In this document: positions 14,690-29,975 of the stretch, in pieces
Position numbering within the stretch: position 1 is the stretch's first letter
Layout: every line of letters starts with the position of its first letter
Origin: Coprobacillaceae bacterium
Lineage (GTDB): Bacteria > Bacillota_I > Bacilli_A > Erysipelotrichales > Coprobacillaceae
DNA: 32,000 bases
Assembly: GCA_963675515.1 (NCBI GenBank)
Contig: OY776328.1
Location: 240,001-272,000, forward strand
Direction of reading: 5' to 3'
Translations under genes and position numbers: made by a program
Notes under the pieces: model-generated
Seen by the model: the letters and a program-made list of their open reading frames with translations, nothing else
Databases searched by the model: none
Told to the model about the DNA's origin: nothing

Positions 14690-14731
14690 AAACCTGCAGC
14701 TTGGGAACAATTCTCAAAGCTGCAGGTTTTT
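14688..14731. terminator. Intrinsic terminator of scrB (probably bidirectional in the ancestral locus)
   Basis: A5, then the 9-bp stem CCTGCAGCT / AGCTGCAGG, then T6. Confidence 0.8.
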
Positions 14732-16243
14732 TGTATGCCGGGCATGGCATATATCTAGGTGGTGAAAGTCCACTGTGGGGGTGACGTCGCAACTGCCAAC
14801 CACTAGCCAATATCAAGGGTGTCCATCGTGAGGTGGAATCTGAAAGAAGATGGAGGCAAAACCCTGGTCCGAGGAACACGAATCACATCAGGCATGTAAT
14901 GGGGACGAGCGTGCAAAACAACGCAAAGTCATAAGAGGTTGCGGAATGATACTATTACATGTAAATGTGGCGGATATATGGGGTGAAATAGATATGACCT
15001 TATCCCGGGAGATCTTGCGAGGGAGCAATCCTAGTAACAACGAATCGCAAGAAGTCAGCAGACGTCGTAGTAGCGAAGAAGTGGCTGTAATGGTCATGGA
15101 GTGAAGGACTGAATAAATCTATCAGTTATTAAAATTAGGCTTGATTTCATCACGCGAAAACGCAAAGACAGTCGAACACACTAGTAAAGCCCGAAAGAAG
15201 AATGTAGGGAAAGTGAGCCTGATGAATAGCGAAAACAATGGAGGTAACGGAAATATGAAAACTGATAACGAATTACTGGAACAAATGCTTAGCCATACCA
15301 ATCTCAAACAAGCGTATGTACAAGTTAAACGAAACAAAGGTGCATGCGGAATTGATGGTATGGATGTCTACCAACTTAAGGGATATCTAGATGAACATCT
15401 GGATGAAATTAAGGCAAGCATAATGAACCGCACGTATAAACCACAACCGGTTAGGAGAGTGGAAATACCAAAAGCTGATGGTGGAACAAGAAATCTAGGA
15501 GTGCCTACAGTCATCGATAGATTCATTCAGCAAGCTATCGCCCAGGTATTAACACCAATCTATGAACCAATCTTCAGTGACAACAACTATGGTTTTAGAC
15601 CCAATAGATGTTGTGAAATGGCAGTTATCAAGGCATTGGAATACATGAACGAAGGATTCCAATGGGTCGTGGATATTGACTTGGAGAAGTTTTTCGACAA
15701 TATCAACCACGATAAACTTATTACATTGGTGATGAAGGATGTAAAGAGCGGTGAGATTGTATCGCTTATTAGAAAATTCCTGGTAAGTGGAATTATGATT
15801 GACGATGAATATAAGGAATCTATAGTCGGTACTATGCAAGGTGGTCCGTTAAGTCCACTACTATCCAATATATTTCTTAATGAATTGGACAAGGAAATGG
15901 AAGCTAGGGGGTTACACTATACACGTTATGCCGATGACTGTATGATTTTCGTTGGGAGTAGCAAAGCAGCTGACAGAGTCATGGCATCAATAAGCAAATT
16001 CATCGAAACCAAGCTAGGCCTGAAAGTCAATATGACCAAAAGCAAAGTTGCAAAACCCAACGACATAAAGTATTTGGGATTTGGATTCTACTATGATACT
16101 TTCAACCAGCTTTGGAAAGCAAAACCGCATGCCAAATCAATAAAGACACTTAAAGAAAAATTGAAGGAATTGACTAATCGAAGTTGGTCAATTCCCTGGG
16201 ATTATAGATGCTTAAAGATACGGCAACTAATAGTCGGGTGGAT

Positions 16244-16251
16244 AAACTACT
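16244..16251. repeat. 8-bp target-site duplication of the IS256-family element (left copy)
   Basis: AAACTACT at 16244-16251 is repeated at 17619-17626. Confidence 0.8.
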
Positions 16252-17618
16252 GATAGTGTAAAATATTTTGTGTAAATAGGATTTCAACTTTTAAGTAGAA
16301 AAAAGGGTGCAACCCTTGTAAAATTAGTTCGACGAAAACAATTTACGAGAGGATTACACCCATGAACTATTTTACAACAACTTTACTTAGAAGTCTAATA
16401 TCAAATGATAATAATCTGCCAGCTTTTGAGCAAGTAGTCTCAGAACTTTTCCGGAGCGAATTGGAGAATGCCATCAACGATATTTTGAAGTCCGAACTTA
16501 CCGTTTTTCTTGATTATGAGAAATATGACCGATCTGAGAATTCGAATTCAAGAAATGGCTATTACAACCGCGATTACAACACTAAATATGGTGTGTTGAA
16601 CCTGCGCATACCACGTGACCGTCAAGGGGACTTTGATTCACCGCTGGTCCCTAAATATCAGCGAAACGATCTAGCTACCACCAACACTGTCATCGATCTA
16701 TTTAATTCAGGGATGACCAACAGCGACATTGTAAAAACTGTTGAATCAATCTACGGCAAGAAATACTCCAGACAGACAGTTTCCAATATTACTAAGGAAA
16801 TAGTTGCCCATGTTGAAGCCTTTAAAAATCGCCCGTTAAACAAGCAATACGCAGTTGTTTATACCGACGCTACAGTTATTCCTTTGCGGCGCGATACCGT
16901 GTCTAAAGAGGCGGTTCATATCGCTATAGGAGTGACTCTAGAGGGAACAAAGGAAATACTAGGATATTCAATTGCGCCAACCGAATCCGCAACAACATGG
17001 CGGGAACTGTTTGAAGAGTTCAAAACACGCGGTTTGGAAGCGGTTGCGTTATTCTGTACTGACGGGCTAACCGGTGTTGAGAACGCCATTGAAGACACTT
17101 TTCCGATGGCCAAAATCCAACGTTGCCTGGTGCATGTTTCAAGAAACATTACAGCCAAAGCAAGAGTGAAAGACCGTAGTGAGATTGCACAGGATTTTAA
17201 GCGAGTTTACAATTGCGAAACTGAAAAAGCGGCGAGTGAAGAGCTTAAGGAGTTCATCACCAAATGGGGGCAAAAATACCCAAAAGTGGCAAAATCACTT
17301 GAAGAGAATTCAAATCTATTCACTTTCTATTTGTTCCCTGAATCGGTACGCAAGAGCATATATACAACAAACCTGATCGAAGGTTTCAATAAACAGCTCA
17401 AGCGGAAAATCAAGGCTAAAGAACAATTCCCAAATGAGGAAGCTGTGGAGAAATACATCGTTTCGCAATTTGAACAATATAACCAAAAATTCATGAACCA
17501 TACCCATAAGGGATTCAAAGGAATATCTTACGAACGTTGGTTCCTGCTAGAAGAAGAATAACCAAGATGATCAGTAAGAACTAATTTTACAAATTTACAC
17601 AAAAATATTGACACTACC
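16252..17618 (+). mobile_element. IS256-family insertion sequence (1367 bp)
   Basis: Imperfect 26-bp terminal IRs: GATAGTGTAAAATATTTTGTGTAAAT versus the reverse complement GGTAGTGTCAATATTTTTGTGTAAAT (21/26 match). Single transposase ORF. 8-bp TSD. Confidence 0.85.
16362..17561 (+). CDS. IS256-family (mutator-type) transposase
   Basis: 399 aa. Typical IS256 pattern: RNGYYNRDYNTKYGVLNLRIPRDRQG, and a DDE triad in the contexts YTDAT, CTDGL, NLIEGFN. Confidence 0.92.
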   Translation: MNYFTTTLLRSLISNDNNLPAFEQVVSELFRSELENAINDILKSELTVFLDYEKYDRSENSNSRNGYYNRDYNTKYGVLNLRIPRDRQGDFDSPLVPKYQRNDLATTNTVIDLFNSGMTNSDIVKTVESIYGKKYSRQTVSNITKEIVAHVEAFKNRPLNKQYAVVYTDATVIPLRRDTVSKEAVHIAIGVTLEGTKEILGYSIAPTESATTWRELFEEFKTRGLEAVALFCTDGLTGVENAIEDTFPMAKIQRCLVHVSRNITAKARVKDRSEIAQDFKRVYNCETEKAASEELKEFITKWGQKYPKVAKSLEENSNLFTFYLFPESVRKSIYTTNLIEGFNKQLKRKIKAKEQFPNEEAVEKYIVSQFEQYNQKFMNHTHKGFKGISYERWFLLEEE

Positions 17619-17626
17619 AAACTACT
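17619..17626. repeat. 8-bp target-site duplication of the IS256-family element (right copy)
   Basis: AAACTACT, identical to 16244-16251. Confidence 0.8.
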
Positions 17627-17862
17627 ATAAAATAGGTAACTTCAAAGGTACGTGCGAAAACCTCGACGGGTGGATTAGATTTAGAATAAGAATGTATCTC
17701 TGGAAGAAATGGAAAACCATTAAGAACAGGAGAAAACAACTTAGAAAACTTGGAGCAAAACGATGGCAATATGAATCATGGTCAAACTCTAGGAAATCAT
17801 ACGCCCGGTGTGCTAGCACATTTCTTAAGACAAGGGTCACAAACGAGTTACTCAAAAGAAAA

Positions 17863-17887
17863 GGCCTAGTATCACTACTAGACCAAT
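17863..17887. repeat. Long (22-25 bp) target duplication of the IS1634-like element (left copy)
   Basis: GGCCTAGTATCACTACTAGACCAAT is repeated exactly at 19910-19934. The last 3 nt are ambiguous between the IS end and the duplication. Confidence 0.85.
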
Positions 17888-18077
17888 GGAGTCAACTTTA
17901 GGAACTTTTTCCTAGTTAGCTCTTTTTATATCTATATGCATCTTAAATATAAATCTCTGACGCTTAATTCAAGTTTAGTTTAAATCTTCACATGAAAAAA
18001 AGCGCATAATCCCCCATAGAATTTTAGCGTTTTTTTAAAATTGCGATATTCATGTTATAATGATAGTGTATTCTTGA

Positions 18078-19616
18078 CTACGGGGCAACTGTTCTCATGA
18101 CGCCTTTGATGGTTTGAATTTTTGGATAGTTTCGCCCATCAAGCGAGAATCGGTAGTAGAATCCACTAGGAACTACTCTGCCCCAACGTTGACTGTGCCT
18201 GTTCTTGCGGACGGGCACTTTTATTGTTTGGGCTACGGCAACTATTTGCTTAATCCTTTTTCGCATCAGTGTTTTCTTATGACTGTAAAACGGATACAGC
18301 AGGTTGTTCTCCATCAGCAGATTATGTAGTTGTTTGATGTTGACCCGGTACTGGATATTATCTTCATCATTTTTATCGGAGGTTTCTTCACGATTAGGCC
18401 GGCGGCGGTGCTTGCCCGGGTGCCTGCTAAGATACCTGTCGATTTCTTTCCTGATCACTCCCAAGATATTGTAAAGCACGATTTTGCCATAGATGCAGCA
18501 TTGGGATACGGTGTCGGATTCGCTAACGTGTCGTTCCAGTTCCATATCGGTTTTTAGCGTTTTATATGCCACCTCAATATTCCAACGCTTTGAATAGAGC
18601 TCGATGATATCCTCGTGGCTGAACTCTTCTTTTGACAAACTGGTAAAGTATGTTATATCTGATTCAATGGACTCCCCGAATTTATTACTGTATGCATAAG
18701 TAAATTTTACGACTCTTATCTTCACTTTGGGGTTATCTTCTCTGATTTTACGGGCTTCATCAGAGAACCGGAATCTTTTCCGCCATAGCCTGTCAACATC
18801 TACCTCGATCCACTCATCATTTGAAGTCATTTCACTGACTTGCTTTTTAAAGAAGTTGGATTTGGCACGGATGCAATAATCAAATCCTAAGTGCTCAAGA
18901 TGACTGATAAGCTCGACTGAGCCATAGTAGCGATCAGCAAGATAAATCACTTTCTTGCCAGCCAACAGATCCCCACAACTATAAAGGTGTTGGAAGGCAA
19001 GTGGAATTTCTGAGTAAGGGGCAGGTCTCATCATGAAATCCAAAAAGATGCCGTTGGTGACGTCATATAGTCCAGCTGATTTGGACAGAACTTTCTTAAC
19101 ATCGAAAATATCTTTGACGTACTGGTTTTTCCAAAAGCCGAAGTTATAAATATTGTGGATGCTATAGGGAATTTCTAGAAAGGTCCCATCTTCAGCTAAA
19201 AGCGTATACCCTTTATATGTCTTAGGCAGCTTGCTTTGATAGAACTCCTTGGCAAACTCTTTGAATAAATATCTGAATACTGATGGATTGAGTTTTTTGA
19301 TATCGACGTTAAGAGCTTGCTTGGTGATCCTTTTTTCCAAGCGGTCAGTGGAGCAGAAATACTTGGTCAAGTCCGTGTTAGTGTCCTTAGAATTTCTAAA
19401 AACAAAGTAGAGAATTACATCCCTGAAAGTCATAGTCCGATTGCGAGTAAAATTAGAACTAAAGTTCCTAGATAAATTACGAGTGATGTCAGAAGACAAG
19501 ACATCCGCGAAAGAATTGAAGAAATCTGTCATCTTATTAGTCTTAACTACATTATTCATCATCGTATACCAACCTTGGTTTCTTTTTAGCGAAAGCCGCT
19601 TTGAGGAAAGGAACAC
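18078..19616 (-). CDS. IS4/IS1634-family DDE transposase, main ORF (catalytic part)
   Basis: 512 aa. IS4 signature Y-x2-R-x3-E-x6-K in LYSKRWNIEVAYKTLK, plus YLADRYYGS. Confidence 0.85.
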   Translation of the reverse strand: MFLSSKRLSLKRNQGWYTMMNNVVKTNKMTDFFNSFADVLSSDITRNLSRNFSSNFTRNRTMTFRDVILYFVFRNSKDTNTDLTKYFCSTDRLEKRITKQALNVDIKKLNPSVFRYLFKEFAKEFYQSKLPKTYKGYTLLAEDGTFLEIPYSIHNIYNFGFWKNQYVKDIFDVKKVLSKSAGLYDVTNGIFLDFMMRPAPYSEIPLAFQHLYSCGDLLAGKKVIYLADRYYGSVELISHLEHLGFDYCIRAKSNFFKKQVSEMTSNDEWIEVDVDRLWRKRFRFSDEARKIREDNPKVKIRVVKFTYAYSNKFGESIESDITYFTSLSKEEFSHEDIIELYSKRWNIEVAYKTLKTDMELERHVSESDTVSQCCIYGKIVLYNILGVIRKEIDRYLSRHPGKHRRRPNREETSDKNDEDNIQYRVNIKQLHNLLMENNLLYPFYSHKKTLMRKRIKQIVAVAQTIKVPVRKNRHSQRWGRVVPSGFYYRFSLDGRNYPKIQTIKGVMRTVAP

Positions 19617-19749
19617 TTTCTCCGTCTACAAGACCGAAATTAATAAGAACGCGGTGTTTAGATACACCATTTTCACGATAAGACTCAACAAGTGCACAAA
19701 AATAGGTATTATCTTTACCTTTATTGTTCTTAACAGCTCTGACAAACAT
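19552..19749 (-). CDS. N-terminal segment of the IS1634-like transposase, in a different frame (frameshifted or two-ORF arrangement)
   Basis: The 65-aa ORF MFVRAVKNNKGKDNTYFCALVESYRENGVSKHRVLINFG... resembles the conserved N-terminus of IS1634-family transposases. It overlaps the main ORF by 65 nt, around an A-rich tract (GCTAAAAAGAAACC). Confidence 0.55.
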   Translation of the reverse strand: MFVRAVKNNKGKDNTYFCALVESYRENGVSKHRVLINFGLVDGESVPFLKAAFAKKKPRLVYDDE

Positions 19750-19909
19750 AATATCGCCTCTTTTCTTAACTACATTATATCACTATAATGGCTAAATATC
19801 AGCAAATATTACTTATAATCTTAACTACAAATTCAAATCAAATATCGAACAGTTGTCAAAAACATCAAAAAAAGAGCCGACTTAAGGAATTTCTTAAGTT
19901 GACTCCATT

Positions 19910-19934
19910 GGCCTAGTATCACTACTAGACCAAT
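19910..19934. repeat. Long target duplication of the IS1634-like element (right copy)
   Basis: Identical to 17863-17887. Confidence 0.85.
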
Positions 19935-19966
19935 ATCAGTTAAAACATATTTCAGTATAGATTTAA

Positions 19967-19998
19967 ACCGCCGTATGCCGGCCGGCTTGTACGGTGGT
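19967..19998 (+). ncRNA. Group II intron domain V (class C type)
   Basis: ACCGCCGUAU-GCC-GGCC-GGC-UU-GUACGGUGGU. This folds as a 10-bp lower helix, a 2-nt 3' bulge, a 3-bp upper helix and a tetraloop. CGC occupies the catalytic-triad position. Length is 32 nt. Confidence 0.8.
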
Positions 19999-19999
19999 G

Positions 20000-20019
20000 T
20001 TATCCCGATATCGGGATAA
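20000..20019. repeat. Perfect 20-bp palindrome at the left RIT/intron junction
   Basis: TTATCCCGATATCGGGATAA. It consists of two inverted copies of the 9-mer TTATCCCGA, which also recurs inside both RIT inverted repeats. Confidence 0.9.
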
Positions 20020-20023
20020 TCAA

Positions 20024-20107
20024 ACTTATACCGACTTTTGGATTATCCCGACAAATATGTATTTTTGAGGGATAGTCTCTTTTTGTATTATTAAAAGTCG
20101 GGATAAT
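20024..20107. repeat. RIT left terminal inverted repeat (84 bp)
   Basis: Matches the reverse complement of 23367-23450 at 79/84 positions by hand alignment. Confidence 0.9.
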
Positions 20108-20147
20108 TTTATTTTCAGTCTATAATGTAGTTAGGAGGTAGTTTGAA

Positions 20148-21377
20148 ATGAAAAATTTGAATAGTATCGACGAATTAGTTCAGCTTGCTTTAAATAACCT
20201 GAAGTCTCAAGGCTATAATGAACTTACCATTCAGGCCTACGAATCCAGCTACTTTAACCCCATTTTGAAAAGATATTCTGACTTAAACCAAATCAACTAT
20301 AGTCAAGAAATTATGGATTCACTGCTAAAGCTCTATCTTTCGCAACTTCAAAACAAAATTATTAGTAGGACCACCTATAATAAAAGAGTGCGTGGCGTCT
20401 TAATGATCACCGAACTTAATGATTTCGGTTCCTTCAAGTGGAAAGTTTTCACATTTAAGGATGAAATCCCTATATCATCAGGGTTCAAAATGACAATAAA
20501 AGAATATTTGAAAAATAGAGATGTATCTATTAGGACCCTTCAATTTGAAGAGCGAATCCTATATTTATTTTCAAATTTTCTAAACAATCATGATATTTTG
20601 CAACCGAAATTAATAAGTACTAGCGATATAGTGGAATTTATTAAAATCATCTCTAAGGATAACCCAAAATCCATGGATAGAATACTCACTTGTTTGAAAA
20701 AATATTTAGTTAATTTGTACAGAAATAAAAAGATTGATTTTGATATAAGCTCCATCGTTTCCTTTGGTAAAATACGAGACAGGGCATTATATCCGCCGAT
20801 AGATATGATTGATCTTGTAGGAATTTTAAATTCAATTGATAGGGAGACACCTACCGGAAAAAGAAATTATGCGATTATAATATTGGGTGCAATGACAGGG
20901 CTAAGAGCTGGAGATATAGTACGGATTCAGCTTGAAGATATTGATTGGAAAAAACGCAAATTAAATATAGTTCAGGGGAAAACAAATAGTCCCATATCAG
21001 TGCCATTAACTGAGAGTGTCTGTAATGCAATTGCGGACTACATTCTAAATGGAAGACCCAAAACAGATGATAATAGTATTTTTATAAGATCCATAGCTCC
21101 TTTTACGGGGCTTAAAGACGGCTGTTCTATCGCTTCTTTTTTTAGAAGGTATCTATTAAAGGCTGGAATTGAACCATCCCTTAAAACCGGGAACACTTTC
21201 CACTCTATTAGGCGGATGTTTGGGACTCAATTGATTATCAACGGTGTTCCGGTTACAATGATTGCCCAGCTTTTGGGTCACCAATCAGTCATACCTACTA
21301 AGCAATATATTTCACTTGATGTTGAGGGTTTGAGAAAGTGTGCGTTATCGATGGAAACACTTGATGGTAGATTATGA
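20148..21377 (+). CDS. ritA: Tyrosine recombinase, first of trio
   Basis: 409 aa. Catalytic residues in context: GLRAGD (R), GKTNS (K), HSIRR (H-x-x-R), GHQS (H), KQYISL (Y). Preceded by GGAGG. Confidence 0.8.
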   Translation: MKNLNSIDELVQLALNNLKSQGYNELTIQAYESSYFNPILKRYSDLNQINYSQEIMDSLLKLYLSQLQNKIISRTTYNKRVRGVLMITELNDFGSFKWKVFTFKDEIPISSGFKMTIKEYLKNRDVSIRTLQFEERILYLFSNFLNNHDILQPKLISTSDIVEFIKIISKDNPKSMDRILTCLKKYLVNLYRNKKIDFDISSIVSFGKIRDRALYPPIDMIDLVGILNSIDRETPTGKRNYAIIILGAMTGLRAGDIVRIQLEDIDWKKRKLNIVQGKTNSPISVPLTESVCNAIADYILNGRPKTDDNSIFIRSIAPFTGLKDGCSIASFFRRYLLKAGIEPSLKTGNTFHSIRRMFGTQLIINGVPVTMIAQLLGHQSVIPTKQYISLDVEGLRKCALSMETLDGRL

Positions 21378-22324
21378 AATTCATATATGAATATATCCCC
21401 GAAATGATTAATTATCGAATTGATTTAGGGTATTCGTTGCAACCAACTTCTTGGTATCTTAAAGATTTTTCCAGATACTTGAAGAAAAATTTTCCCAGTG
21501 AAACAATGCTTACTCAAGAAATGATCATGCCTTGGTGTGTGCAAAGGAAAACTGAGCAGGCGTGCAGTTTTCGATCTAGAATGTCATCAATAAGACAATT
21601 TACACTTTACCTTTTTGCGAACGGAGCTTCCAATTTTGTACTTGATTTGAATTTCTTACCTAAAATCACAAGATATGTACCCTATATATTTACAAACATG
21701 GAGCTTAAAACCATTTTTGAAATGGCTGATAGTAAAAAATATATCAAACCGATTACAGCTAAAAATAGAATCATATCTGTAATCTATCGATTGATATACT
21801 TTTGTGGTCTTCGGCCAAACGAAGGTCGTGAAATAATGAAAAAAGATTTGGACTTGGATAACGGAACTATACTTATTAGAAAAAACAAAAATCATAAGGA
21901 ACGTCTAATTCCAATGGCAGCTGATGTAACAGATATGATGCGCGAGTATATCGATGAAATGAAGTTAATATTTCCAAATACTGATTATGTTTTTCCATCT
22001 CCAACCGGGCTTCCATATCATTCAAAATGGTTAAGGACGGAATTCTTGAAGATTTGGGATGAGATAAAACCCGAGGGTGGTAGAGCTCGTGTAAGAGTAT
22101 ACGATTTACGTCATCGCTGGGCGACAACTGTCATGATGAAACTCTTAAACGATGGTGAAGATTTATATTCATTGCTTCCCTACATGAGTGCCTATATGGG
22201 TCATTCCAATTTCGAAGACACGGCTTATTATATTCACTTACTACCAGAGGAATTAATTAAATCATCTGAAGTTGATTGGGAAAGGTTTTCCTCAATCATT
22301 CCTGAGGTGTCTAAGTATGACTGA
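21374..22324 (+). CDS. ritB: Tyrosine recombinase, second of trio
   Basis: 316 aa. Catalytic contexts: GLRPNEG, LRHRW, GHSN, AYYIHL. ATGA start/stop overlap with the first gene. Confidence 0.8.
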   Translation: MKFIYEYIPEMINYRIDLGYSLQPTSWYLKDFSRYLKKNFPSETMLTQEMIMPWCVQRKTEQACSFRSRMSSIRQFTLYLFANGASNFVLDLNFLPKITRYVPYIFTNMELKTIFEMADSKKYIKPITAKNRIISVIYRLIYFCGLRPNEGREIMKKDLDLDNGTILIRKNKNHKERLIPMAADVTDMMREYIDEMKLIFPNTDYVFPSPTGLPYHSKWLRTEFLKIWDEIKPEGGRARVRVYDLRHRWATTVMMKLLNDGEDLYSLLPYMSAYMGHSNFEDTAYYIHLLPEELIKSSEVDWERFSSIIPEVSKYD

Positions 22325-23366
22325 AAATTCATTATGTTTCTTCAAAATGATTAGAGATTATTTTGAGTCTTTCTTACCAAAACAAAAAGGAAACAGCTTC
22401 AACACAATCAAATCCTATAAAATCACTATGAATCAATTTCTAAAACATGCATGTAGCGCCAATAAAATCAAACTATCTGAATTTTGCTTCGAGATGACCT
22501 CGGTTAAGCTGCTTGAGAATTTTTTGGATGACGGTGAGCAATATTCCGGGTGGTCCTGCAGTACTAGAAATCAGAAACTGGCAGCCATACGTTCGTTTTA
22601 CAAATATGTTGCCTCTCGTAATATTTCTTTAATGGCATATTACCAAGAACTACTTGCGGTCCCAATGAAAAAGATGTCCAAGAATAATCAGATTGAATAC
22701 TTCTCCGAAAATGTTTTAGAAACATTACTTAGGCAGCCAAACACAAAAACAAAAAAAGGAATACGGGATTTGGTTTTCATGATACTAATGTATGACACTG
22801 GAGCTAGAATTCAGGAAATTTTGGATCTCAAAATTGGAGACCTATTCCTATTTAGTGAAGTCCCGTACGTGAAACTAACTGGAAAGGGCAGTAAAGTAAG
22901 ATTAGTCCCAATTATGGAAAAAACGGTAAACCACTTGAAAAATTATCTATCGATATTTCACTTAAAATCAAAAGACGATAGCTTCGTTTTTTGTTCAAAA
23001 CGAAAGGAAATCATCAGTCAACTGTCGCCAGACGCTGTTCAAAAATTTATTGATAAATATTGTGCATCCGCTCATGATGTAGATGAAGAAGTACCTATTC
23101 ATATTTATCCGCATATGTTCCGCCATTCTAGAGCCATGCATTTATATCATGGTGGAATGCCGCTACCACTTATTTCCGAATGGCTTGGACACGCGCAAGT
23201 TTCTACAACAATGGAATTCTATGCGCAGCCAACATTAGAAATGAAAAAACAGGCAATTGAGCAGGCTACAGAAGCAATTAGCCCCTTAATAAATATTTCT
23301 AATAAATACAATCTGGATTTTGAAAATGATGAAGAACTGATCAAAAGGCTTTATGGATTGATATGA
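22317..23366 (+). CDS. ritC: Tyrosine recombinase, third of trio
   Basis: About 349 aa from the ATG at 22317, which overlaps the second gene by 8 nt. Catalytic contexts: TGARIQE, FRHSRA, GHAQVSTT, EFYAQ. Confidence 0.8.
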   Translation: MTENSLCFFKMIRDYFESFLPKQKGNSFNTIKSYKITMNQFLKHACSANKIKLSEFCFEMTSVKLLENFLDDGEQYSGWSCSTRNQKLAAIRSFYKYVASRNISLMAYYQELLAVPMKKMSKNNQIEYFSENVLETLLRQPNTKTKKGIRDLVFMILMYDTGARIQEILDLKIGDLFLFSEVPYVKLTGKGSKVRLVPIMEKTVNHLKNYLSIFHLKSKDDSFVFCSKRKEIISQLSPDAVQKFIDKYCASAHDVDEEVPIHIYPHMFRHSRAMHLYHGGMPLPLISEWLGHAQVSTTMEFYAQPTLEMKKQAIEQATEAISPLINISNKYNLDFENDEELIKRLYGLI

Positions 23367-23450
23367 GTTATCCCGACTTTTAATAATCCAAAAAAGGACT
23401 ATCCCTCAAAAATACATAATTGTCGGGATAATCCAAAAGTCGGTATAAGT
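23367..23450. repeat. RIT right terminal inverted repeat (84 bp)
   Basis: Reverse complement of 20024-20107, with 5 mismatches. Confidence 0.9.
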
Positions 23451-23455
23451 GGTGT

Positions 23456-23503
23456 GAGAGGTCGAAAATAAATAGGGAAACTATTTATTTTCTCCTACTC
23501 GAT
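23456..23503 (+). ncRNA. Putative group II intron domain VI and 3' end
   Basis: The helix is GAGAGG..G-AAAAUAAAUAG-GGAAA-CUAUUUAUUUU-C.CCU-A-CUC. An unpaired A at 23497 is the 7th nucleotide from a terminal ...GAU (AY) at 23503. Confidence 0.55.
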
Positions 23504-24234
23504 TAATGTCCATTTGAATTTTGGCCCGAACCGACTTGGCCCCCGGAACCTTGGGCGTTTTGGTTTGAATTGGTGTTTTCGCCACCGTTGTCTGTGTTTC
23601 CGTTCTGGCTGTTGTTGCCATTTTGATTCTGCTCCTGATTCTTGATTTGCATCTGGAGCTGGTTATATGACAGTTTGAAGCAGTCTTCAATGTCCGAATC
23701 AGGGTCGAGCTGGGCCAATCTCAAACATGCATGGTATTTGCCAAAGGTCATATTGTATTGATGGGCGATTTGGTAATTGTTCTGCTGGGCTTCGACGAAT
23801 CCGGTCAACGCACTGTCGATTTTGGCATTGTCGTTGAAGTAGACAACAGTTATTGTCACCGGATTGCCAACTTTGGCTTGGAGATTTTCGATGACATCAA
23901 GATAATTGTCATGCAGATAATCATGTTCTCCTATGAGTGCTGTGCTGGAATCGTCATATCCCATGATTTTGATAACTTCGTTATTCGAATCAACTTCCAA
24001 TTCCACGGCCATATCTCCATCCAGGGACAATGCCATTACTGCCTGGGACTTGTTGAAATAGTTGAAAGATAAGAACACCGCGAGAAATATCGCCAGACTT
24101 GAAAGCACGGCTTTTGAAAAATATGGTATACGCCTTTTTTTTGTTGCCGGTCGATAAATATGGTTCAACGTCTGGTTTTTTAGCTCCGGCGATGCTTTTA
24201 TCCGATCAAAATCGGATTTAAATTTTTCATTCAT
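23503..24234 (-). CDS. Membrane anti-sigma factor (single TM) with an N/Q/G-rich C-terminal tail
   Basis: Short cytoplasmic N-terminus, a TM segment (AVLSSLAIFLAVFLSF), an extracytoplasmic domain, and the tail NQEQNQNGNNSQNGNTDNGGENTNSNQNAQGSGGQVGSGQNSNGH. Overlaps the 3' end of the ECF sigma gene. The second ATG (24234) has better SD spacing than 24243. Confidence 0.7.
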   Translation of the reverse strand: MNEKFKSDFDRIKASPELKNQTLNHIYRPATKKRRIPYFSKAVLSSLAIFLAVFLSFNYFNKSQAVMALSLDGDMAVELEVDSNNEVIKIMGYDDSSTALIGEHDYLHDNYLDVIENLQAKVGNPVTITVVYFNDNAKIDSALTGFVEAQQNNYQIAHQYNMTFGKYHACLRLAQLDPDSDIEDCFKLSYNQLQMQIKNQEQNQNGNNSQNGNTDNGGENTNSNQNAQGSGGQVGSGQNSNGH

Positions 24235-24706
24235 TAAAATCATCTCCTAGCTGTTTTTTCAATAATTCGCGGCCTCTTTTCAAGTCGCTGTAAATGCTGT
24301 TGGTTTTCCTGTTGAGGATCTTGGAAATCTGGTCGGCGGTGTAACCCTCATAATAGTGAAGGTAGATGGCCAACTTGTAATTCTTGGGCAACATCAGAAC
24401 CGCTGAAATAAGGTCGCTGTTGCCAAAATTTTCCTCGGTCTGGATGTCCCTTAGCTGGTCGATGTCCACCGTCTTTTTGAATATGTTTTTGAATGTGTTC
24501 TTGCATTCATTGATGGTGACTCTTATCAACCAGGCTTTTTCATGATCCAATGACTCAAAAGGAGTTTCACGAGTAGCGTATTTTAAGAAGACATTTTGAA
24601 ATACGTCCTGACAATCCGCATCGTTTTTCAAGTTCAAAATGCAGATTTTTTTTATCATGTCTCCGTATTGGTCAATCTTCATTCGACAGATATCTTCGCT
24701 AATCAT
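24227..24706 (-). CDS. ECF-type sigma-70 family RNA polymerase sigma factor
   Basis: 159 aa. Region 2 (DCQDVFQNVFLKY...AWLIRVTINECKN) and region 4 (YEGYTADQISKILNRKTNSIYSDLKRGRELL). Confidence 0.88.
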   Translation of the reverse strand: MISEDICRMKIDQYGDMIKKICILNLKNDADCQDVFQNVFLKYATRETPFESLDHEKAWLIRVTINECKNTFKNIFKKTVDIDQLRDIQTEENFGNSDLISAVLMLPKNYKLAIYLHYYEGYTADQISKILNRKTNSIYSDLKRGRELLKKQLGDDFNE

Positions 24707-24736
24707 AGTAATCTCCTTTAGACAGACAAAAGAATG

Positions 24737-25168
24737 TTATTGCTTACTATAATTATGCTCCGATTGTGATTGGTTTGCAAATGCATTCTCGTTGTCACAT
24801 TCGTTTTGGCATTCACCGTCATTGTCCTGAGTTTGGACTCTTTGACGGGTTTGAGCTTGGGTCTGTTCCTGATCCTGAGTTTGAACCTCTGCTTGTTCTT
24901 GAGACTGGGTCTGGTTTTGAACACAATTTCTATTTCTTGTTTGCGTTTGAACTTGTTCTTGGGTCTGGTCGCATGTACCGTCTCCTTGTGAGTTTTCTCC
25001 CACTAGATCACAAATACCATCTTCGTTTTCATCCACGAAGTTTGATGCCTGCAATATTGTCGCTTCACCTGAAGCGTTTTGGGCTACCGGACCTGCCTGG
25101 GCCATTACCGTAGTCGCACCTGAACCGAGCATTACCATTAAAACTGAACTGATTACAATGTTTTTCAT
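24737..25168 (-). CDS. Small secreted acidic Q/T-rich Cys-motif protein, copy 1 (co-transcribed with the sigma/anti-sigma genes)
   Basis: Signal peptide MKNIVISSVLMVMLGSGATTVMAQA. The mature part contains FVDENEDGICD, GDGTCDQ and DNDGECQNECD. GGAGG SD. Only 30 nt and no terminator separate it from the sigma gene. Confidence 0.8.
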   Translation of the reverse strand: MKNIVISSVLMVMLGSGATTVMAQAGPVAQNASGEATILQASNFVDENEDGICDLVGENSQGDGTCDQTQEQVQTQTRNRNCVQNQTQSQEQAEVQTQDQEQTQAQTRQRVQTQDNDGECQNECDNENAFANQSQSEHNYSKQ

Positions 25169-25192
25169 TTTATATTCCTCCTGTTTTCACAA

Positions 25193-25224
25193 CTAATACA
25201 ATTGAAAGTTGGAAATCCTTGCAA
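25193..25224 (-). promoter_or_regulatory. Conserved promoter-like bipartite motif upstream of copy 1 (candidate ECF-dependent promoter)
   Basis: Minus strand: TTGCAAGGATTTCC, 10 nt, TGTATTAG. Both blocks are identical in all three copies; the spacer differs in this copy. Confidence 0.45.
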
Positions 25225-25464
25225 CTTTTTTTGTTTTTTCAAATAATATTGCAAAACTTAATTAACCGTAAAATACATATTAGTTCGATATTTGGTTATT
25301 GTCACTTTTGAAAAACTACCAAACATTGGCTTTTTGGGTGTAAGTAATATTTCTACGGTACCAAAAATAAACTCCAAGATGCATATGGTGGCTAATTAAG
25401 TTACAAAACGGACAATACAGTTTATCGTGAACTATCGAATAGGGGCCATTTCCTTTTCGCAACA

Positions 25465-25488
25465 GAAAAAGCGCAAATATTGCGCTTT
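25465..25488 (-). terminator. Intrinsic terminator after copy 2
   Basis: Minus strand: GCGCAA-TAT-TTGCGC followed by TTTTTCT. Confidence 0.7.
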
Positions 25489-25511
25489 CAGGGTTCATAT
25501 GGTCCCTTATA

Positions 25512-25940
25512 TTATTGATTGTTGCCAAGACTGTAAGATGACTGTGTTTGGTTTGCCAATGCATTCTCATTGTCACATTCGTTTTGACATTCACCGTCAT
25601 TGTCCTGAGTTTGGATTCTTTGACGGGTTTGAGCTTGGGTCTGATCCTGAGTTTGAGCCTCTGCTTGTTCTTGAGACTGGGTCTGGTTTTGAATACAATT
25701 TCTGTTTCTTGTTTGCGTTTGAGCTTGTTCTTGGGTCTGGTCGCATGTACCGTCTCCTTGTGAGTTTTCTCCCACTAGATCACAAATACCATCTTCGTTT
25801 TCATCCACGAAGTTTGATGCCTGCAATGTTGTCGCTTCACCTGAAGCGTTTTGGGCTACCGGACCTGCCTGGGCCATTACCGTAGTCGCACCTGAACCGA
25901 GCATTACCATTAAAACTGAACTGATTACAATGTTTTTCAT
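25512..25940 (-). CDS. Small secreted acidic Q/T-rich Cys-motif protein, copy 2
   Basis: 142 aa. Near-identical to copies 1 and 3 apart from a few substitutions, one in-frame indel, and a different C-terminus from copy 1. Confidence 0.8.
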   Translation of the reverse strand: MKNIVISSVLMVMLGSGATTVMAQAGPVAQNASGEATTLQASNFVDENEDGICDLVGENSQGDGTCDQTQEQAQTQTRNRNCIQNQTQSQEQAEAQTQDQTQAQTRQRIQTQDNDGECQNECDNENALANQTQSSYSLGNNQ

Positions 25941-25964
25941 TTTATATTCCTCCTGTTTTCACAA

Positions 25965-25996
25965 CTAATACAACTTCAACCCGGAAATCCTTGCAA
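25965..25996 (-). promoter_or_regulatory. Conserved promoter-like bipartite motif upstream of copy 2
   Basis: TTGCAAGGATTTCC, 10 nt (GGGTTGAAGT), TGTATTAG. Confidence 0.45.
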
Positions 25997-26085
25997 CTAT
26001 TTTTATTTTTTTCAAATTTTATTACAAAACGGACAATGCAGTTTATCGAGAACTATCGAATAGGGGCCATTTCCTTTTCGCAATA

Positions 26086-26109
26086 GAAAAAGCGCAAATA
26101 TTGCGCTTT
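26086..26109 (-). terminator. Intrinsic terminator after copy 3
   Basis: Same hairpin GCGCAA-TAT-TTGCGC plus TTTTTCT as after copy 2. Confidence 0.7.
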
Positions 26110-26132
26110 CAGGGTTCATATGGTCCCTTATA

Positions 26133-26567
26133 TTATTGATTGTTGCCAAGACTGTAAGATGACTGTGTTTGGTTTGCCAATGCGTTCTCATTGTCACATT
26201 CGTTTTGACATTCACCGTCATTGTCCTGAGTTTGGACTCTTTGACGGGTTTGAGCTTGGGTCTGATCCTGATCCTGAGTTTGAGCCTCTGCTTGTTCTTG
26301 AGACTGGGTCTGGTTTTGAACACAATTTCTGTTTCTTGTTTGCGTTTGAGCTTGTACTTGGGTCTGGTCGCAAGTACCATCTCCTTGTGAGTTTTCTCCC
26401 ACTAGATCACAAATACCATCTTCGTTTTCATCCACGAAGTTTGATGCCTGCAATGTTGTCGCTTCACCTGAAGCGTTTTGGGCTACCGGACCTGCCTGGG
26501 CCATTACCGTAGTCGCACCTAAACCGAGCATTACCATTAAAACTGAACTGATTACAATGTTTTTCAT
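26133..26567 (-). CDS. Small secreted acidic Q/T-rich Cys-motif protein, copy 3
   Basis: 144 aa, with the same architecture as the other copies. Confidence 0.8.
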   Translation of the reverse strand: MKNIVISSVLMVMLGLGATTVMAQAGPVAQNASGEATTLQASNFVDENEDGICDLVGENSQGDGTCDQTQVQAQTQTRNRNCVQNQTQSQEQAEAQTQDQDQTQAQTRQRVQTQDNDGECQNECDNENALANQTQSSYSLGNNQ

Positions 26568-26591
26568 TTTAAATTCCTCCTGTTTTCACAA

Positions 26592-26623
26592 CTAATACAA
26601 CTTCAACCCGGAAATCCTTGCAA
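26592..26623 (-). promoter_or_regulatory. Conserved promoter-like bipartite motif upstream of copy 3
   Basis: TTGCAAGGATTTCC, 10 nt (GGGTTGAAGT), TGTATTAG. Confidence 0.45.
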
Positions 26624-26668
26624 TTTTTTCTGAAATATTTTTTGACTATAATAAACTGAGTGTTTCTC

Positions 26669-28142: not shown

Positions 28143-28331
28143 TGATCATGAAATGCTTCCCTGAAATGGCGGAGCATTTTGCCTTTTTTCCATAAGAAAG
28201 ATGTTACTAGAAACAAGCGGGCAAAATATTTGAAATCGATAAGTTCCTTTTTTGGCGAAATTCAACGATTCTCAGTTTAATTGTCCGGTAATTTGTGGTA
28301 TATTGTATTCAACTTAGTGGAGGTAAAGAAG

Positions 28332-29975
28332 ATGCGTATATTTGCAACCGATATGGATGGAACGTTTTTGACTGAAGCAAAAACATTTGATGATAAATTC
28401 TATGACTTGTTTGAATTGATGAAAAAAAATGGCGACCGGTTTGTGGTCGCTTCTGGGGGGCAATACCAGAGACTGTGCATGAGATTCGATCATAATATCA
28501 GAAATGATATTATCTATGTTTCTGAAAACGGTGCCTTGATTCGCGATGGGGAGATAATAATACATAAAGACGTGATCCCAAATGAATCTTGGAAGAAAAT
28601 GATCGACCTCCTGGCGCCATATGATTGCATGATTGTGGTGTGCGGGGTTGAGCATGGCTATGTATTGAGAAAATATGCCCATTTCGATGATGTTATCAGG
28701 AAATTCTACAATAACATTGAATATGTCGAAAGCTATGAAGACATCACGGATGAGATACTAAAGCTTTCGTTTTACGAACCGGACGGAAAGGGGCCGGAAG
28801 TCCAGGATGAGGTGGCCCACCGTGTTCCCGATGACATCTACTGTGTCACCAGCGGGTTCACTTGGTTTGATATCCTTTCGAAGAGCGCAAACAAGGGTGA
28901 AGCACTAAAGAAGGTGTCGGTATACCTGAATGTCGACCGCAAAAACGTCTATGCCTTTGGCGACCAGATGAACGACTTCGAGATGTTGCGCTATGCCAAG
29001 AATTCCTATGCGGTTGCCAATTCGGTTGATGCCATCAAGGCGATAAGCAAATTCGAGATCCCGTCAAATGACGAAAACGGCGTAGTCAAGGAGCTTGAAA
29101 AAATCCTGATGGGGGATCACAAAGAGGCAACAATCATTTCCGGTAAAGAAATCTCGCTGAAAATAAAAGACCAGATCAGGGCCGAAGTGGCTCAGCTGGT
29201 CGCTCAAAACAAAAGAGTTCCAAAATTGGCAGTGATCCTGGTGGGAGAGAACCAGGCATCCAAGGTGTACGTCCGCAACAAGGAAAAAGGATGCGAATAT
29301 GTCAATATGGAATCGCTGATGATTTTAAAAGATGCCAACATCACCCAACAGGATCTCCTTGATCAAATCGCTGTATTGAATCAGGACAAGACTGTCGATG
29401 GCATCCTAGTGCAACTGCCGTTGCCAAAGCATATCGACGAGTCGAAGGTTCTCCGGGCAATAGATCCAAGCAAGGATGTCGATGGATTCCATCCCGACAA
29501 TATCGCGCGGCTGTTCCTGGGTGAAGACGGCCTGGTGCCTTGCACTCCAAAAGGAATGATGGTGATGCTTGAACAGATTGGATACGATCTGACCGGCAAA
29601 CAGGTTGTCGTGGTTGGCCGCAGCAATATCGTTGGTAAACCGGTGGCATTGTTGGCCCTTCAAAAAAACGCGACAGTCACCATCGCCCACAGCAGGACCA
29701 AGGATTTGAAAGCTGTCTGCAAACAAGCCGATGTCCTGATTGGAGCAATTGGAAAAGCTAAGTTCCTTGATGACCAATATGTCAAACCGGGAGCCGTTGT
29801 TCTTGATGTGGGAATCAACCGCGATGAGTTCAATAAGCTATGCGGAGACTTCGATTTCGACAAGGTCAAACATATCGCCAGTGCGATCACTCCGGTTCCA
29901 GGCGGAGTCGGGCCGATGACCATCACGATGTTGCTGGAAAACACATTGAAAGCTTACAAAACGCACGAGGGCTAA
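28332..29975 (+). CDS. folD: In-frame fusion of a Cof-type HAD-IIB phosphatase (N-terminal) and bifunctional methylenetetrahydrofolate dehydrogenase/cyclohydrolase FolD (C-terminal)
   Basis: The N-terminal ~265 aa carry HAD motifs: FATDMDGTFL, a cap region, GDQMNDFEML. The C-terminal ~285 aa are a full FolD: ILVGENQASKVYVRNK, VDGILVQLPLP, DVDGFHP, VVVVGRSNIVGKP, PVPGGVGPMT. No stop codon lies between the two parts. Confidence 0.85.
   Translation: MRIFATDMDGTFLTEAKTFDDKFYDLFELMKKNGDRFVVASGGQYQRLCMRFDHNIRNDIIYVSENGALIRDGEIIIHKDVIPNESWKKMIDLLAPYDCMIVVCGVEHGYVLRKYAHFDDVIRKFYNNIEYVESYEDITDEILKLSFYEPDGKGPEVQDEVAHRVPDDIYCVTSGFTWFDILSKSANKGEALKKVSVYLNVDRKNVYAFGDQMNDFEMLRYAKNSYAVANSVDAIKAISKFEIPSNDENGVVKELEKILMGDHKEATIISGKEISLKIKDQIRAEVAQLVAQNKRVPKLAVILVGENQASKVYVRNKEKGCEYVNMESLMILKDANITQQDLLDQIAVLNQDKTVDGILVQLPLPKHIDESKVLRAIDPSKDVDGFHPDNIARLFLGEDGLVPCTPKGMMVMLEQIGYDLTGKQVVVVGRSNIVGKPVALLALQKNATVTIAHSRTKDLKAVCKQADVLIGAIGKAKFLDDQYVKPGAVVLDVGINRDEFNKLCGDFDFDKVKHIASAITPVPGGVGPMTITMLLENTLKAYKTHEG

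Follow-up and report, generated by a model that had tools for sequence, protein, structure and literature searches.

The locus considered here lies on the minus strand of a 32,000-nucleotide stretch of DNA from a Coprobacillaceae bacterium (GenBank assembly GCA_963675515.1, contig OY776328.1, positions 240,001 to 272,000; hereafter, the window, numbered from its first nucleotide). It is a three-gene envelope-signalling operon of a kind common in Firmicutes, composed of the genes for a small secreted protein, an extracytoplasmic function (ECF) sigma factor and an anti-sigma factor with a SEAL ectodomain, and its first gene is present in two additional copies upstream. We read the small protein as an output under control of the sigma factor, namely a Sec-exported, disordered and acidic polypeptide that would bind divalent cations, a reading held with about even confidence; as to its role, we lean towards that of an effector with feedback. 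ECF operons, SEAL anti-sigma factors and DxDxDG loops are individually known, and their combination here is new to the searchable literature: no description of the three-gene module, of a SEAL anti-sigma factor paired with a canonical ECF sigma factor, or of a systematic link of the repeat family described below to ECF systems was found in a literature search.

A preliminary description of the locus, made from the sequence alone, gave the gene order as copy 3, terminator, copy 2, terminator, copy 1, sigma gene and anti-sigma gene, which was borne out by open reading frame (ORF) calls and hairpin folding (Table 1). Among the three copies, terminator hairpins are found only after copies 3 and 2. 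As that description also had it, copy 1 is separated from the sigma gene by 30 nt without a terminator; this gap contains a ribosome-binding site (RBS) only and folds no better than its shuffled counterparts (dG, –3.3; z, +0.7), showing no stable hairpin. The sigma and anti-sigma genes do overlap, by 8 nt, or by 17 nt if the anti-sigma gene starts at 24243; the start at 24234 is more likely, because the orthologues begin with MNEKF.

The products of the three copies are 89–96% identical and differ by a single in-frame indel of 6 nt, which corresponds to the gain or loss of one unit in a CTGATC hexamer repeat; their near identity had been noted from the outset, as had the acidic, Gln-rich and hydrophobic-poor character of the mature part, with which the residue counts agree (19–21 Asp plus Glu versus 4–5 Lys plus Arg, 25–26 Gln, and only 12–14 residues from Ile, Leu, Met, Phe, Val, Trp and Tyr). 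The Sec signal peptide first described is upheld, but not its proposed end at AQA: the orthologues keep VMA, not AQA, and cleavage between VMA and Gln is more likely than that between AQA and Gly. Likewise, the five Cys residues are present in the window copies, together with a canonical motif (NFVDENEDGICD) at residues 43–54, a degenerate version (GDGTCD) and, towards the C-terminus, a half-motif (DGEC), but of the three DG-x-C-[DQ] motifs originally listed only the first, as NFVDE[ND]EDG[IV]CDL, and the last, as DGEC, are conserved in the orthologues, which have four Cys. The central ~50 residues (about 66–116 of each copy), retained in the orthologues P0003–P0005, carry Gln at alternate positions, (Q-x)n; 15 successive Gln–Gln spacings are exactly 2, versus 4.3 expected, and none of 2000 shuffles reached 15. 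Such alternation is suggestive of an extended strand or a polar zipper. In a distant relative (L010), a (Y-x)n stretch takes the place of (Q-x)n. The C-terminus of copy 1 (...EHNYSKQ) is the same as in P0003 and P0004, while copies 2 and 3 share another tail; from this comparison, the copy 1 C-terminus is ancestral and that of copies 2 and 3 derived. The tail of copy 1 thus does differ, as had been remarked, though over the last 7–8 codons rather than 15 residues, and it is copy 1 that has the ancestral form. Orthologues with as little as 52% identity still have the signal peptide, motif, RBS and promoter, and this conservation extends across genera.

For the small protein, scans of the window proteins against Pfam and NCBIfam returned noise only, and a word-indexed search of 5.8 billion proteins matched, apart from the protein itself, only three orthologues, all in metagenome assemblies of Erysipelotrichaceae; in a scan of genome contigs, a single species representative was matched, an Erysipelotrichaceae metagenome-assembled genome. 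A HMMER profile of six orthologues, run against 1.84 billion representatives, recovered 218 clusters (50% identity) at E ≤ 1e-3 through the motif segment. The motif N-F-V-D-[EA]-[DN]-G-D-G-[VI]-C-D-N occurs, in 1–8 copies, in 148 of the 149 listed matches outside the query cluster. Nearly all members are 90–320 aa long with a signal peptide (median of the listed matches, 138 aa), and the source records label them ‘hypothetical’; canonical members mostly have 2–4 motif copies, linkers rich in Gly, Asn, Gln and Arg, and tails that are either Gly/Arg/Asn/Gln-rich or His-rich. Because the profile search recovers 218 clusters, nearly all of them motif-bearing, the small protein is, by profile comparison, a divergent member of a large, coherent and uncharacterised family of secreted low-complexity proteins, with which it shares the signal peptide and at least one canonical motif, but not the 2–4 tandem motifs (one canonical copy only). 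The protein had at first been taken to be of an unrecognised family. This holds in that no characterised family was matched in profile searches of Pfam, NCBIfam and PDB; it needs amending in that membership of a large uncharacterised repeat family is evident and that there is a faint contact with Pfam PF27309 (MJ0753_N), the sole database family on canonical FVDxDGDGxCD-repeat proteins, seen on about one-third of the matches, where it is marked ‘faint’, and not attached to the window proteins. A literature search on PF27309 and MJ0753 found no literature on the family.

Linkage of this protein to ECF sigma and anti-sigma genes, which the preliminary description proposed to survey, was found far beyond the genus, from the sigma side as well as from the motif side. 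At the syntenic site in close relatives, between a gene for a FAD-dependent protein and a GH32/phosphotransferase system/LacI cluster, one small gene is followed by the sigma and anti-sigma genes. A small DG[IV]CD protein with a signal peptide is encoded just upstream of the sigma gene in six of seven distinct sigma-homologue loci, five of them at 50–70% sigma identity and the sixth in the genus of the query itself. The sigma homologues at ~50% identity belong to Thomasclavelia, Lachnospiraceae, Candidatus Bariatricus and other Firmicutes; in the five sampled loci at this identity, an RsgI_M-type anti-sigma gene is always downstream and a DG[IV]CD protein gene is upstream in four, the one without it being that of Eubacterium plexicaudatum. 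From the motif side, a metagenome scan with the pattern [VI]Dx[ND]xDG[IV]CD only gave 80 loci, 61 of which were distinct with sufficient flanks, and their ORFs were searched with hidden Markov models built on the sigma homologues and on the alignment of anti-sigma sequences. The sigma subfamily of the window lies directly downstream of the motif gene in 24 of the 61 (19 with a detected SEAL anti-sigma, most of the others being cut by contig ends). In seven (L051, L061, L076, L086, L090, L094 and L102, all Bacteroidota-like), the motif gene is followed by a different ECF sigma gene and then by genes for a zf-HC2 anti-sigma and a CnrX/Spy-like Metal_resist protein (PF13801); one further example of this arrangement was found. 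A weaker-scoring ECF sigma ORF lies elsewhere in four; in three of these, also Bacteroidota-like (L052, L056 and L084), the sigma gene is 1.3–1.6 kb upstream, followed by one or more further ORFs (Metal_resist confirmed in L056), the motif gene and a gene for a DUF2202 ferritin-like protein. No sigma gene is within reach in the remaining 26. Altogether, 35 of the 61 informative loci (~57%) are ECF-linked and ~43% have no adjacent sigma gene, and the repeat family is paired with at least two unrelated anti-sigma types. The recurrent neighbours in these other arrangements, CnrX/Spy-like and ferritin-like, point to metal or envelope stress.

Every related locus has, ~45 nt ahead of the start codon of its small gene, a bipartite element, TG(A/C)A(A/T)(G/T)GATT ... 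(C/T)GTATTA (equivalent to TGMAAG-N17-YGTATT), which is kept across genera even where the remaining intergenic DNA has fully diverged. The strict form TGMAAG-N17-YGTATT has exactly three matches in the window, one ahead of each copy. Of 20 metagenome loci of the same sigma subfamily, 16 contain a relaxed form and two more a near-variant; the relaxed form is seen in none of seven loci with other ECF sigma genes and in two of 25 unlinked loci, and its matches over both strands of 879 kb number only 21 in total. The motif resembles the Bacillus ECF consensus, of the sigmaW type TGAAAC-N16-CGTA. Reading TTGCAA... instead as part of a sigma-70 promoter was rejected, as its spacing to –10-like hexamers is poor and the sites were not listed by a simple promoter scan. 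The conservation of the element, and its specificity for the region upstream of the small gene, amount to strong comparative evidence for its being the cognate promoter and for autoregulation of the operon. The earlier proposal of an autoregulated ECF operon whose first gene was amplified together with its promoter is accordingly supported by these comparative data, i.e., by the motif shared ahead of all copies and by the single-copy relatives. In L078 (motif gene, 319–699 of that locus) and one other unlinked locus, the promoter motif (TGAAAGGATTC...GACGTAT) precedes a motif-protein gene without an adjacent sigma gene; such a gene may be an unlinked member of the regulon.

The repeat unit of the amplification consists of promoter, gene, a ~125-nt filler holding the terminator, an A-rich stretch and the next promoter. 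Homology of copy 1 to copies 2 and 3 ends within the last 7–8 codons, beyond which copy 1, like the orthologues, runs straight into the sigma gene, and copies 2 and 3 share their distinct tail and terminator. Since copies 2 and 3 have this tail and terminator in common and copy 1 does not, the alignment indicates that a promoter–gene–terminator cassette arose once and was later duplicated. The proportion of synonymous differences (pS) comes to 0.036 for copies 2 and 3 compared with each other, and to 0.04–0.07 for either of them against copy 1 (ahead of the junction), with ratios of the nonsynonymous to the synonymous proportion (pN/pS) of 0.35–0.68. The unit spacings of 772 and 627 bp differ by a ~150-bp insertion. 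No match to the ~125-nt filler of copies 2 and 3 was found in any retrieved locus, and none to the copy 2–copy 1 spacer (filler plus insertion) among plasmids. The insertion resembles a miniature inverted-repeat transposable element (MITE), a status that is unproven because it has no second copy within the window. Copy number of the small gene, another point raised at the outset, does vary: ~30 other sigma-linked loci hold a single small gene each, so that the triplication is, by this comparison, specific to the source genome.

The sigma factor has the size of ECF factors (~150–200 aa) and comprises only the regions Sigma70_r2 (1.5e-4) and Sigma70_r4_2 (1e-10) in Pfam, with 57.2 bits to NCBIfam TIGR02937 (sigma70-ECF; cut-off, 42.9); 2206 homologues were retrieved, and RsgI_M-type proteins follow the sigma homologues in all sampled loci, as in cognate anti-sigma pairing. 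The anti-sigma factor consists of a ~45-aa cytoplasmic N-terminus, one transmembrane (TM) helix, the SEAL ectodomain and a ~50-aa polar low-complexity tail, which by composition is rich in Asn, Gln, Gly and Ser and has no hydrophobic core. On its own it matches Pfam RsgI_M below the cut-off (E, 0.003), and RsgI_N was absent in the Pfam scan. A nine-sequence profile of the anti-sigma family, on the other hand, matches the solved RsgI ectodomains 8hep_B (1.9e-18), Bacillus subtilis RsgI 8t9n_A (8e-13) and 8heq_B (4e-12), as well as RsgI2 and RsgI9, and the ectodomain is by profile homology an RsgI-type SEAL domain. The RsgI SEAL domain autocleaves at Asn-Pro, and the disordered tail is required for triggering intramembrane proteolysis (PMC10556640, PMC9732909, PMC10328401). 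At the aligned position, the window protein has Asp-Met and its close relatives Asp-Leu or Asp-Ile; in most of the distant members D[IV]NPS is kept. The window anti-sigma factor probably does not autocleave. Replacement of Pro with Ala abolishes cleavage in RsgI2 and RsgI6, and Clostridium thermocellum RsgI8 naturally has Asp-Ala (PMC10328401); in B. subtilis, tail-dependent signalling persists in a non-cleavable RsgI variant (PMC10556640). The SEAL domain of the window clade is also without a ~10-residue insert that bears conserved Cys and His in typical members of the anti-sigma family.

The overall architecture is closest, at the level of the anti-sigma factor, to the SigI–RsgI systems (B. 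subtilis RsgI and C. thermocellum RsgI1–9), with the same single TM helix, juxtamembrane SEAL domain (RsgI_M) and polar, here putatively disordered, tail, and the same logic is expected here, in which a tail-dependent signal would lead to intramembrane proteolysis and sigma release (PMC10556640, PMC9732909, PMC10328401). It differs from them in having as partner a canonical 159-aa ECF factor (sigma2 plus sigma4_2) instead of SigI, a ~45-aa N-terminus without an RsgI_N match instead of RsgI_N, and Asp-Met, comparable to the Asp-Ala of RsgI8, instead of Asn-Pro; those systems have no counterpart of the secreted-protein gene that heads the window operon. The three-part composition of the operon, in which a small extracytoplasmic protein accompanies an ECF sigma factor and a membrane-bound anti-sigma factor, is shared with the metal-sensing CnrYXH and NccYXH modules, and relatives of the small protein are indeed encoded in one operon with a zf-HC2 anti-sigma factor and a Metal_resist protein. 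A CnrX-like Metal_resist protein is, however, absent from the window operon and confined to the alternative operons of distant relatives; the window small protein has neither a helical-hairpin fold nor a Metal_resist/LTXXQ match, and its anti-sigma factor is of the SEAL type, not CnrY-like.

A likeness of the small protein to thrombospondin type 3 or EF-hand Ca-binding loops had been pointed out, which did not hold beyond the generic DxDxDG loop: no model was matched. In Pfam, the window protein has no thrombospondin-3, EF-hand or Excalibur match even at E ≤ 1, and nothing was returned when PDB was searched with a profile of the orthologues. Membership of the thrombospondin type 3 family was rejected in view of the absence of model matches by the window proteins and the generic nature of the DxDxDG core; that of the EF-hand family, for which loop positions 1, 3, 5 and 6 are occupied, was rejected since there is no Pfam match, no Glu at position 12 and, in the AlphaFold2 models, no flanking helices. 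Excalibur (PF05901), with the motif DxDxDGxxCE (PMC8391695), likewise occurs in extracellular proteins of bacteria and has both the D-x-[DN]-x-D-G core and a Cys directly behind the loop, but was rejected as well, because there is no match at E ≤ 1 and the spacing is DxDxDGxCD, the D-G-[VI]-C-D of the small protein being one residue shorter. Among 16 canonical relatives, weak matches were obtained to Excalibur (four, best E 2.3e-4), EF-hand_1 (six), lanmodulin (E 0.08) and TSP3_bac (one, E 0.15), all under curated cut-offs, and the TSP3-type proteins CglD and MtsD were also weakly matched; these weak matches are to Ca-loop proteins, without any other coherent class. Lanmodulin is a small exported protein that is folded only when metal-bound. 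AlphaFold2 gave no confident fold for the small protein, with a predicted local distance difference test score (pLDDT) of 40.4 from six sequences and 44.7 from 121, which fits disorder or metal-dependent folding. Altogether, the sequence and models are consistent with a disordered, secreted polypeptide that binds Ca or other metals.

Based on these observations, we propose that the sigma factor, once freed from the anti-sigma factor, would transcribe the operon from TGMAAG-N17-YGTATT ahead of the small gene. The small protein would be exported by Sec, remain largely disordered, and bind Ca2+ or a transition metal via the N-F-V-D-E-N-E-D-G-I-C-D loop together with the C-terminal DGEC half-motif. 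It would act in the wall compartment that the putatively disordered tail of the anti-sigma factor would probe, and may feed back on the sensor. With two extra promoter–gene copies, each closed by a terminator, induction would yield ~3x the small protein at an unchanged sigma:anti-sigma ratio, because copy 1 alone would share a transcript with the regulator genes. Several points weigh against this reading. The sigma dependence of the three promoters is predicted from motif conservation; no Ca-loop family is significantly matched by the window protein, the matches of its family stay under the curated cut-offs, and the position-12 Glu and the helices that flank an EF-hand loop are missing. The low pLDDT may stem from a shallow or repetitive alignment instead of true disorder. 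The window clade is also atypical for the family, with one motif instead of 2–4, no His- or Arg-rich tail and a 50-residue (Q-x)n segment, and the RsgI activation route may not apply, because the SEAL domain here is without the Asn-Pro site. Finally, the co-variation of the tails of the small protein and the anti-sigma factor, described next, fits a direct partner or co-sensor equally well.

It is conceivable, though on balance we consider it rather unlikely, that the small protein is not an output but a co-sensor or ligand of the anti-sigma factor (comparable to CnrX–CnrY or RseB–RseA), which would bind the ectodomain or tail, maybe bridged by a metal, and set the threshold for proteolytic sigma release, so that the triplication retunes sensitivity. 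Across the sigma-linked loci compared, the small gene always heads the operon. In many members (L012, L016, L018 and L020, together with several of the metagenome loci), the small protein and the anti-sigma factor both carry His-rich tails, those of Thomasclavelia (HHENGHHARHHGNHH and EHGHHHGQHHE) being an example, and, by comparison with these, the window clade has lost both. The His counts of the last 30 residues of the two proteins are correlated (Spearman 0.74; p, 2e-4; n = 20 deduplicated loci), neither tracking G+C content, and the tail compositions of matched pairs correlate at 0.667, versus 0.473 ± 0.036 for permuted pairs, with none of 5000 permutations reaching 0.667; typical members of the anti-sigma family moreover have the conserved ectodomain Cys and His. 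The co-variation could, however, arise from a bias common to a lineage in its low-complexity extracellular sequences, and the loci are phylogenetically non-independent. A dedicated ligand is also at odds with the occurrence of the family with at least two unrelated anti-sigma types and with the ~43% of sampled loci that have no adjacent sigma gene; the sensor slot in the zf-HC2 operons is already filled by the CnrX-like Metal_resist protein, and the terminator-ended extra copies uncouple dose from the anti-sigma factor, which is unusual for a stoichiometric partner. We favour the effector role because the family occurs with differing anti-sigma types and often without an adjacent sigma gene. 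The two roles would be compatible in a feedback model, by analogy with the paired disordered regions carried by B. subtilis RsgI and PBP1 (PMC9732909). On a broader scale, FVDxDGDGxCD-repeat proteins may constitute a widespread, hitherto unrecognised class of ECF-controlled, extracytoplasmic, disordered proteins that buffer cations or metals, and that in SEAL modules serve as both output and feedback ligand. The low-complexity tails of the small protein and the anti-sigma factor would then have co-evolved towards one wall or metal target that both probe or bind, a counterpart of the RsgI/PBP1 pairing with a secreted protein as one partner, and the cassette amplification would be an adaptive dosage response as for metallothionein; this is speculative, and we would not expect it to hold as a whole.

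Other roles are far less probable. The size, Sec export and Cys content of the protein, the cationic Gly/Arg-rich tails of canonical relatives and the very weak matches of two of 16 relatives to NCBIfam JUQZ_fam_ocin (E, 0.02) would suit a sigma-controlled antimicrobial or signalling peptide (bacteriocin or pheromone), which we regard as very unlikely and reject, since the mature window protein is strongly acidic and no immunity, transporter or processing gene accompanies it within its own operon or at the 24 metagenome loci linked to a sigma gene; the recurrent neighbours elsewhere are Metal_resist and DUF2202, not bacteriocin machinery. That Cys adjoins Asp inside the repeats, that one relative weakly matches a MNIO model for precursors of ribosomally synthesised and post-translationally modified peptides (RiPPs; E, 0.007), and that precursors of the bufferin type likewise bear Sec signals speak for a RiPP precursor with Cys/Asp crosslinks or heterocycles (ranthipeptide-like or MNIO/bufferin-like). 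This is still less probable, and was rejected for lack of a maturase gene: radical S-adenosylmethionine, MNIO (DUF692) and other maturases are absent beside the window gene and from the recurrent families among 95 neighbour ORFs, and the PqqD and ATP-grasp genes further downstream in one Bacteroidota-type locus are non-recurrent. Least credible of all is that the ORFs are low-complexity artefacts or decaying, functionless duplicates, for which their composition, the lack of a confident AlphaFold2 fold, and a pN/pS not far under 1 from few substitutions might be adduced. The frames are intact in all three copies and the sole indel is in frame, and the signal peptide, motif, RBS and promoter are conserved to 52% identity and across genera; with the pN/pS range itself counted in favour, comparison indicates that the small-protein genes are real.

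Features outside the operon are also listed in Table 1. Mobile elements make up the stretch between the GH32 gene and the anti-sigma stop, a block that relatives do not have at their syntenic loci, and its part nearest the operon looks like a recombinase-in-trio element, ending 53 nt from the anti-sigma stop. This adjoining pile of mobile elements could favour rearrangement of the operon. On the other side lies an ORF that joins a Cof-type HAD phosphatase (Hydrolase_3/S6PP) and an entire FolD (tetrahydrofolate dehydrogenase/cyclohydrolase) in one protein, a fusion also found in the syntenic loci of relatives (547–548 aa).

Table 1. Features of the operon, its amplified first gene and the flanking DNA (window positions)
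Feature	Positions	Strand	Remarks
Small secreted protein gene, copy 3	26133–26567	minus	144 aa; derived C-terminus; ORF call; equals P0001 (100% identical)
Small secreted protein gene, copy 2	25512–25940	minus	142 aa; derived C-terminus; one QD unit fewer; equals P0002
Small secreted protein gene, copy 1	24737–25168	minus	143 aa; ancestral C-terminus; sigma gene 30 nt downstream
ECF (group 4) sigma-70 factor gene	24227–24706	minus	159 aa
Single-pass anti-sigma gene	23503–24234 (ORF call, to 24243)	minus	TM helix, SEAL ectodomain and Asn/Gln/Gly-rich tail
ECF-type promoter-like motif, copy 3	26594–26622	minus	TGCAAG-N17-TGTATT
ECF-type promoter-like motif, copy 2	25967–25995	minus	pattern scan
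ECF-type promoter-like motif, copy 1	25195–25223	minus	presumed promoter of the operon (copy 1, sigma and anti-sigma genes)
Intrinsic-terminator hairpin after copy 3	26088–26110	minus	10-bp stem, then UUUUUCU; dG –11.5 kcal/mol; z –4.2; 0/200 shuffles as stable
Intrinsic-terminator hairpin after copy 2	25467–25489	minus	10-bp stem, then UUUUUCU; dG –13.2 kcal/mol; z –4.0
Operon-end hairpin	23456–23500	minus	directly 3' of the anti-sigma stop; dG –17.9 kcal/mol; z –5.5
Insertion of ~150 bp, copy 2 terminator to copy 1 promoter	25250–25402	none	imperfect 27-nt terminal inverted repeats; flanks TTTTGTAA/TTTTGCAA; MITE-like
Mobile-element block	14700–23500		8.8 kb
RVT_1 reverse-transcriptase ORF	15141–16253		mobile block
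IS256/Mutator transposase	16362–17561		mobile block; 27-nt inverted repeats
DDE_Tnp_1 transposase	18078–19616	minus	mobile block; 42-nt inverted repeats
Three tandem overlapping tyrosine recombinase genes	20148–21377, 21374–22324, 22272–23366		
Inverted repeats bounding the recombinase trio	20024–20106 and 23368–23450		83 nt; 95% identical
Candidate recombinase-in-trio element	20024–23450		
HAD–FolD fusion ORF	28281–29975		564 aa

ECF sigma/anti-sigma pairs are major devices of envelope signalling in bacteria, and the signal or the output of most groups is not known. The module defined here joins a canonical ECF sigma factor, an RsgI-type SEAL anti-sigma factor and a conserved secreted repeat protein and is common in gut Firmicutes, and in other phyla members of the repeat family are associated with CnrX-like and ferritin-like genes. 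It thus offers a handle on the function of a repeat family of at least 218 clusters (50% identity), on SEAL signalling with ECF sigma factors and without an Asn-Pro cleavage site, and on the co-evolution of disordered sensor and effector tails, for which the triplication of the small gene in this genome represents a natural dosage variant.

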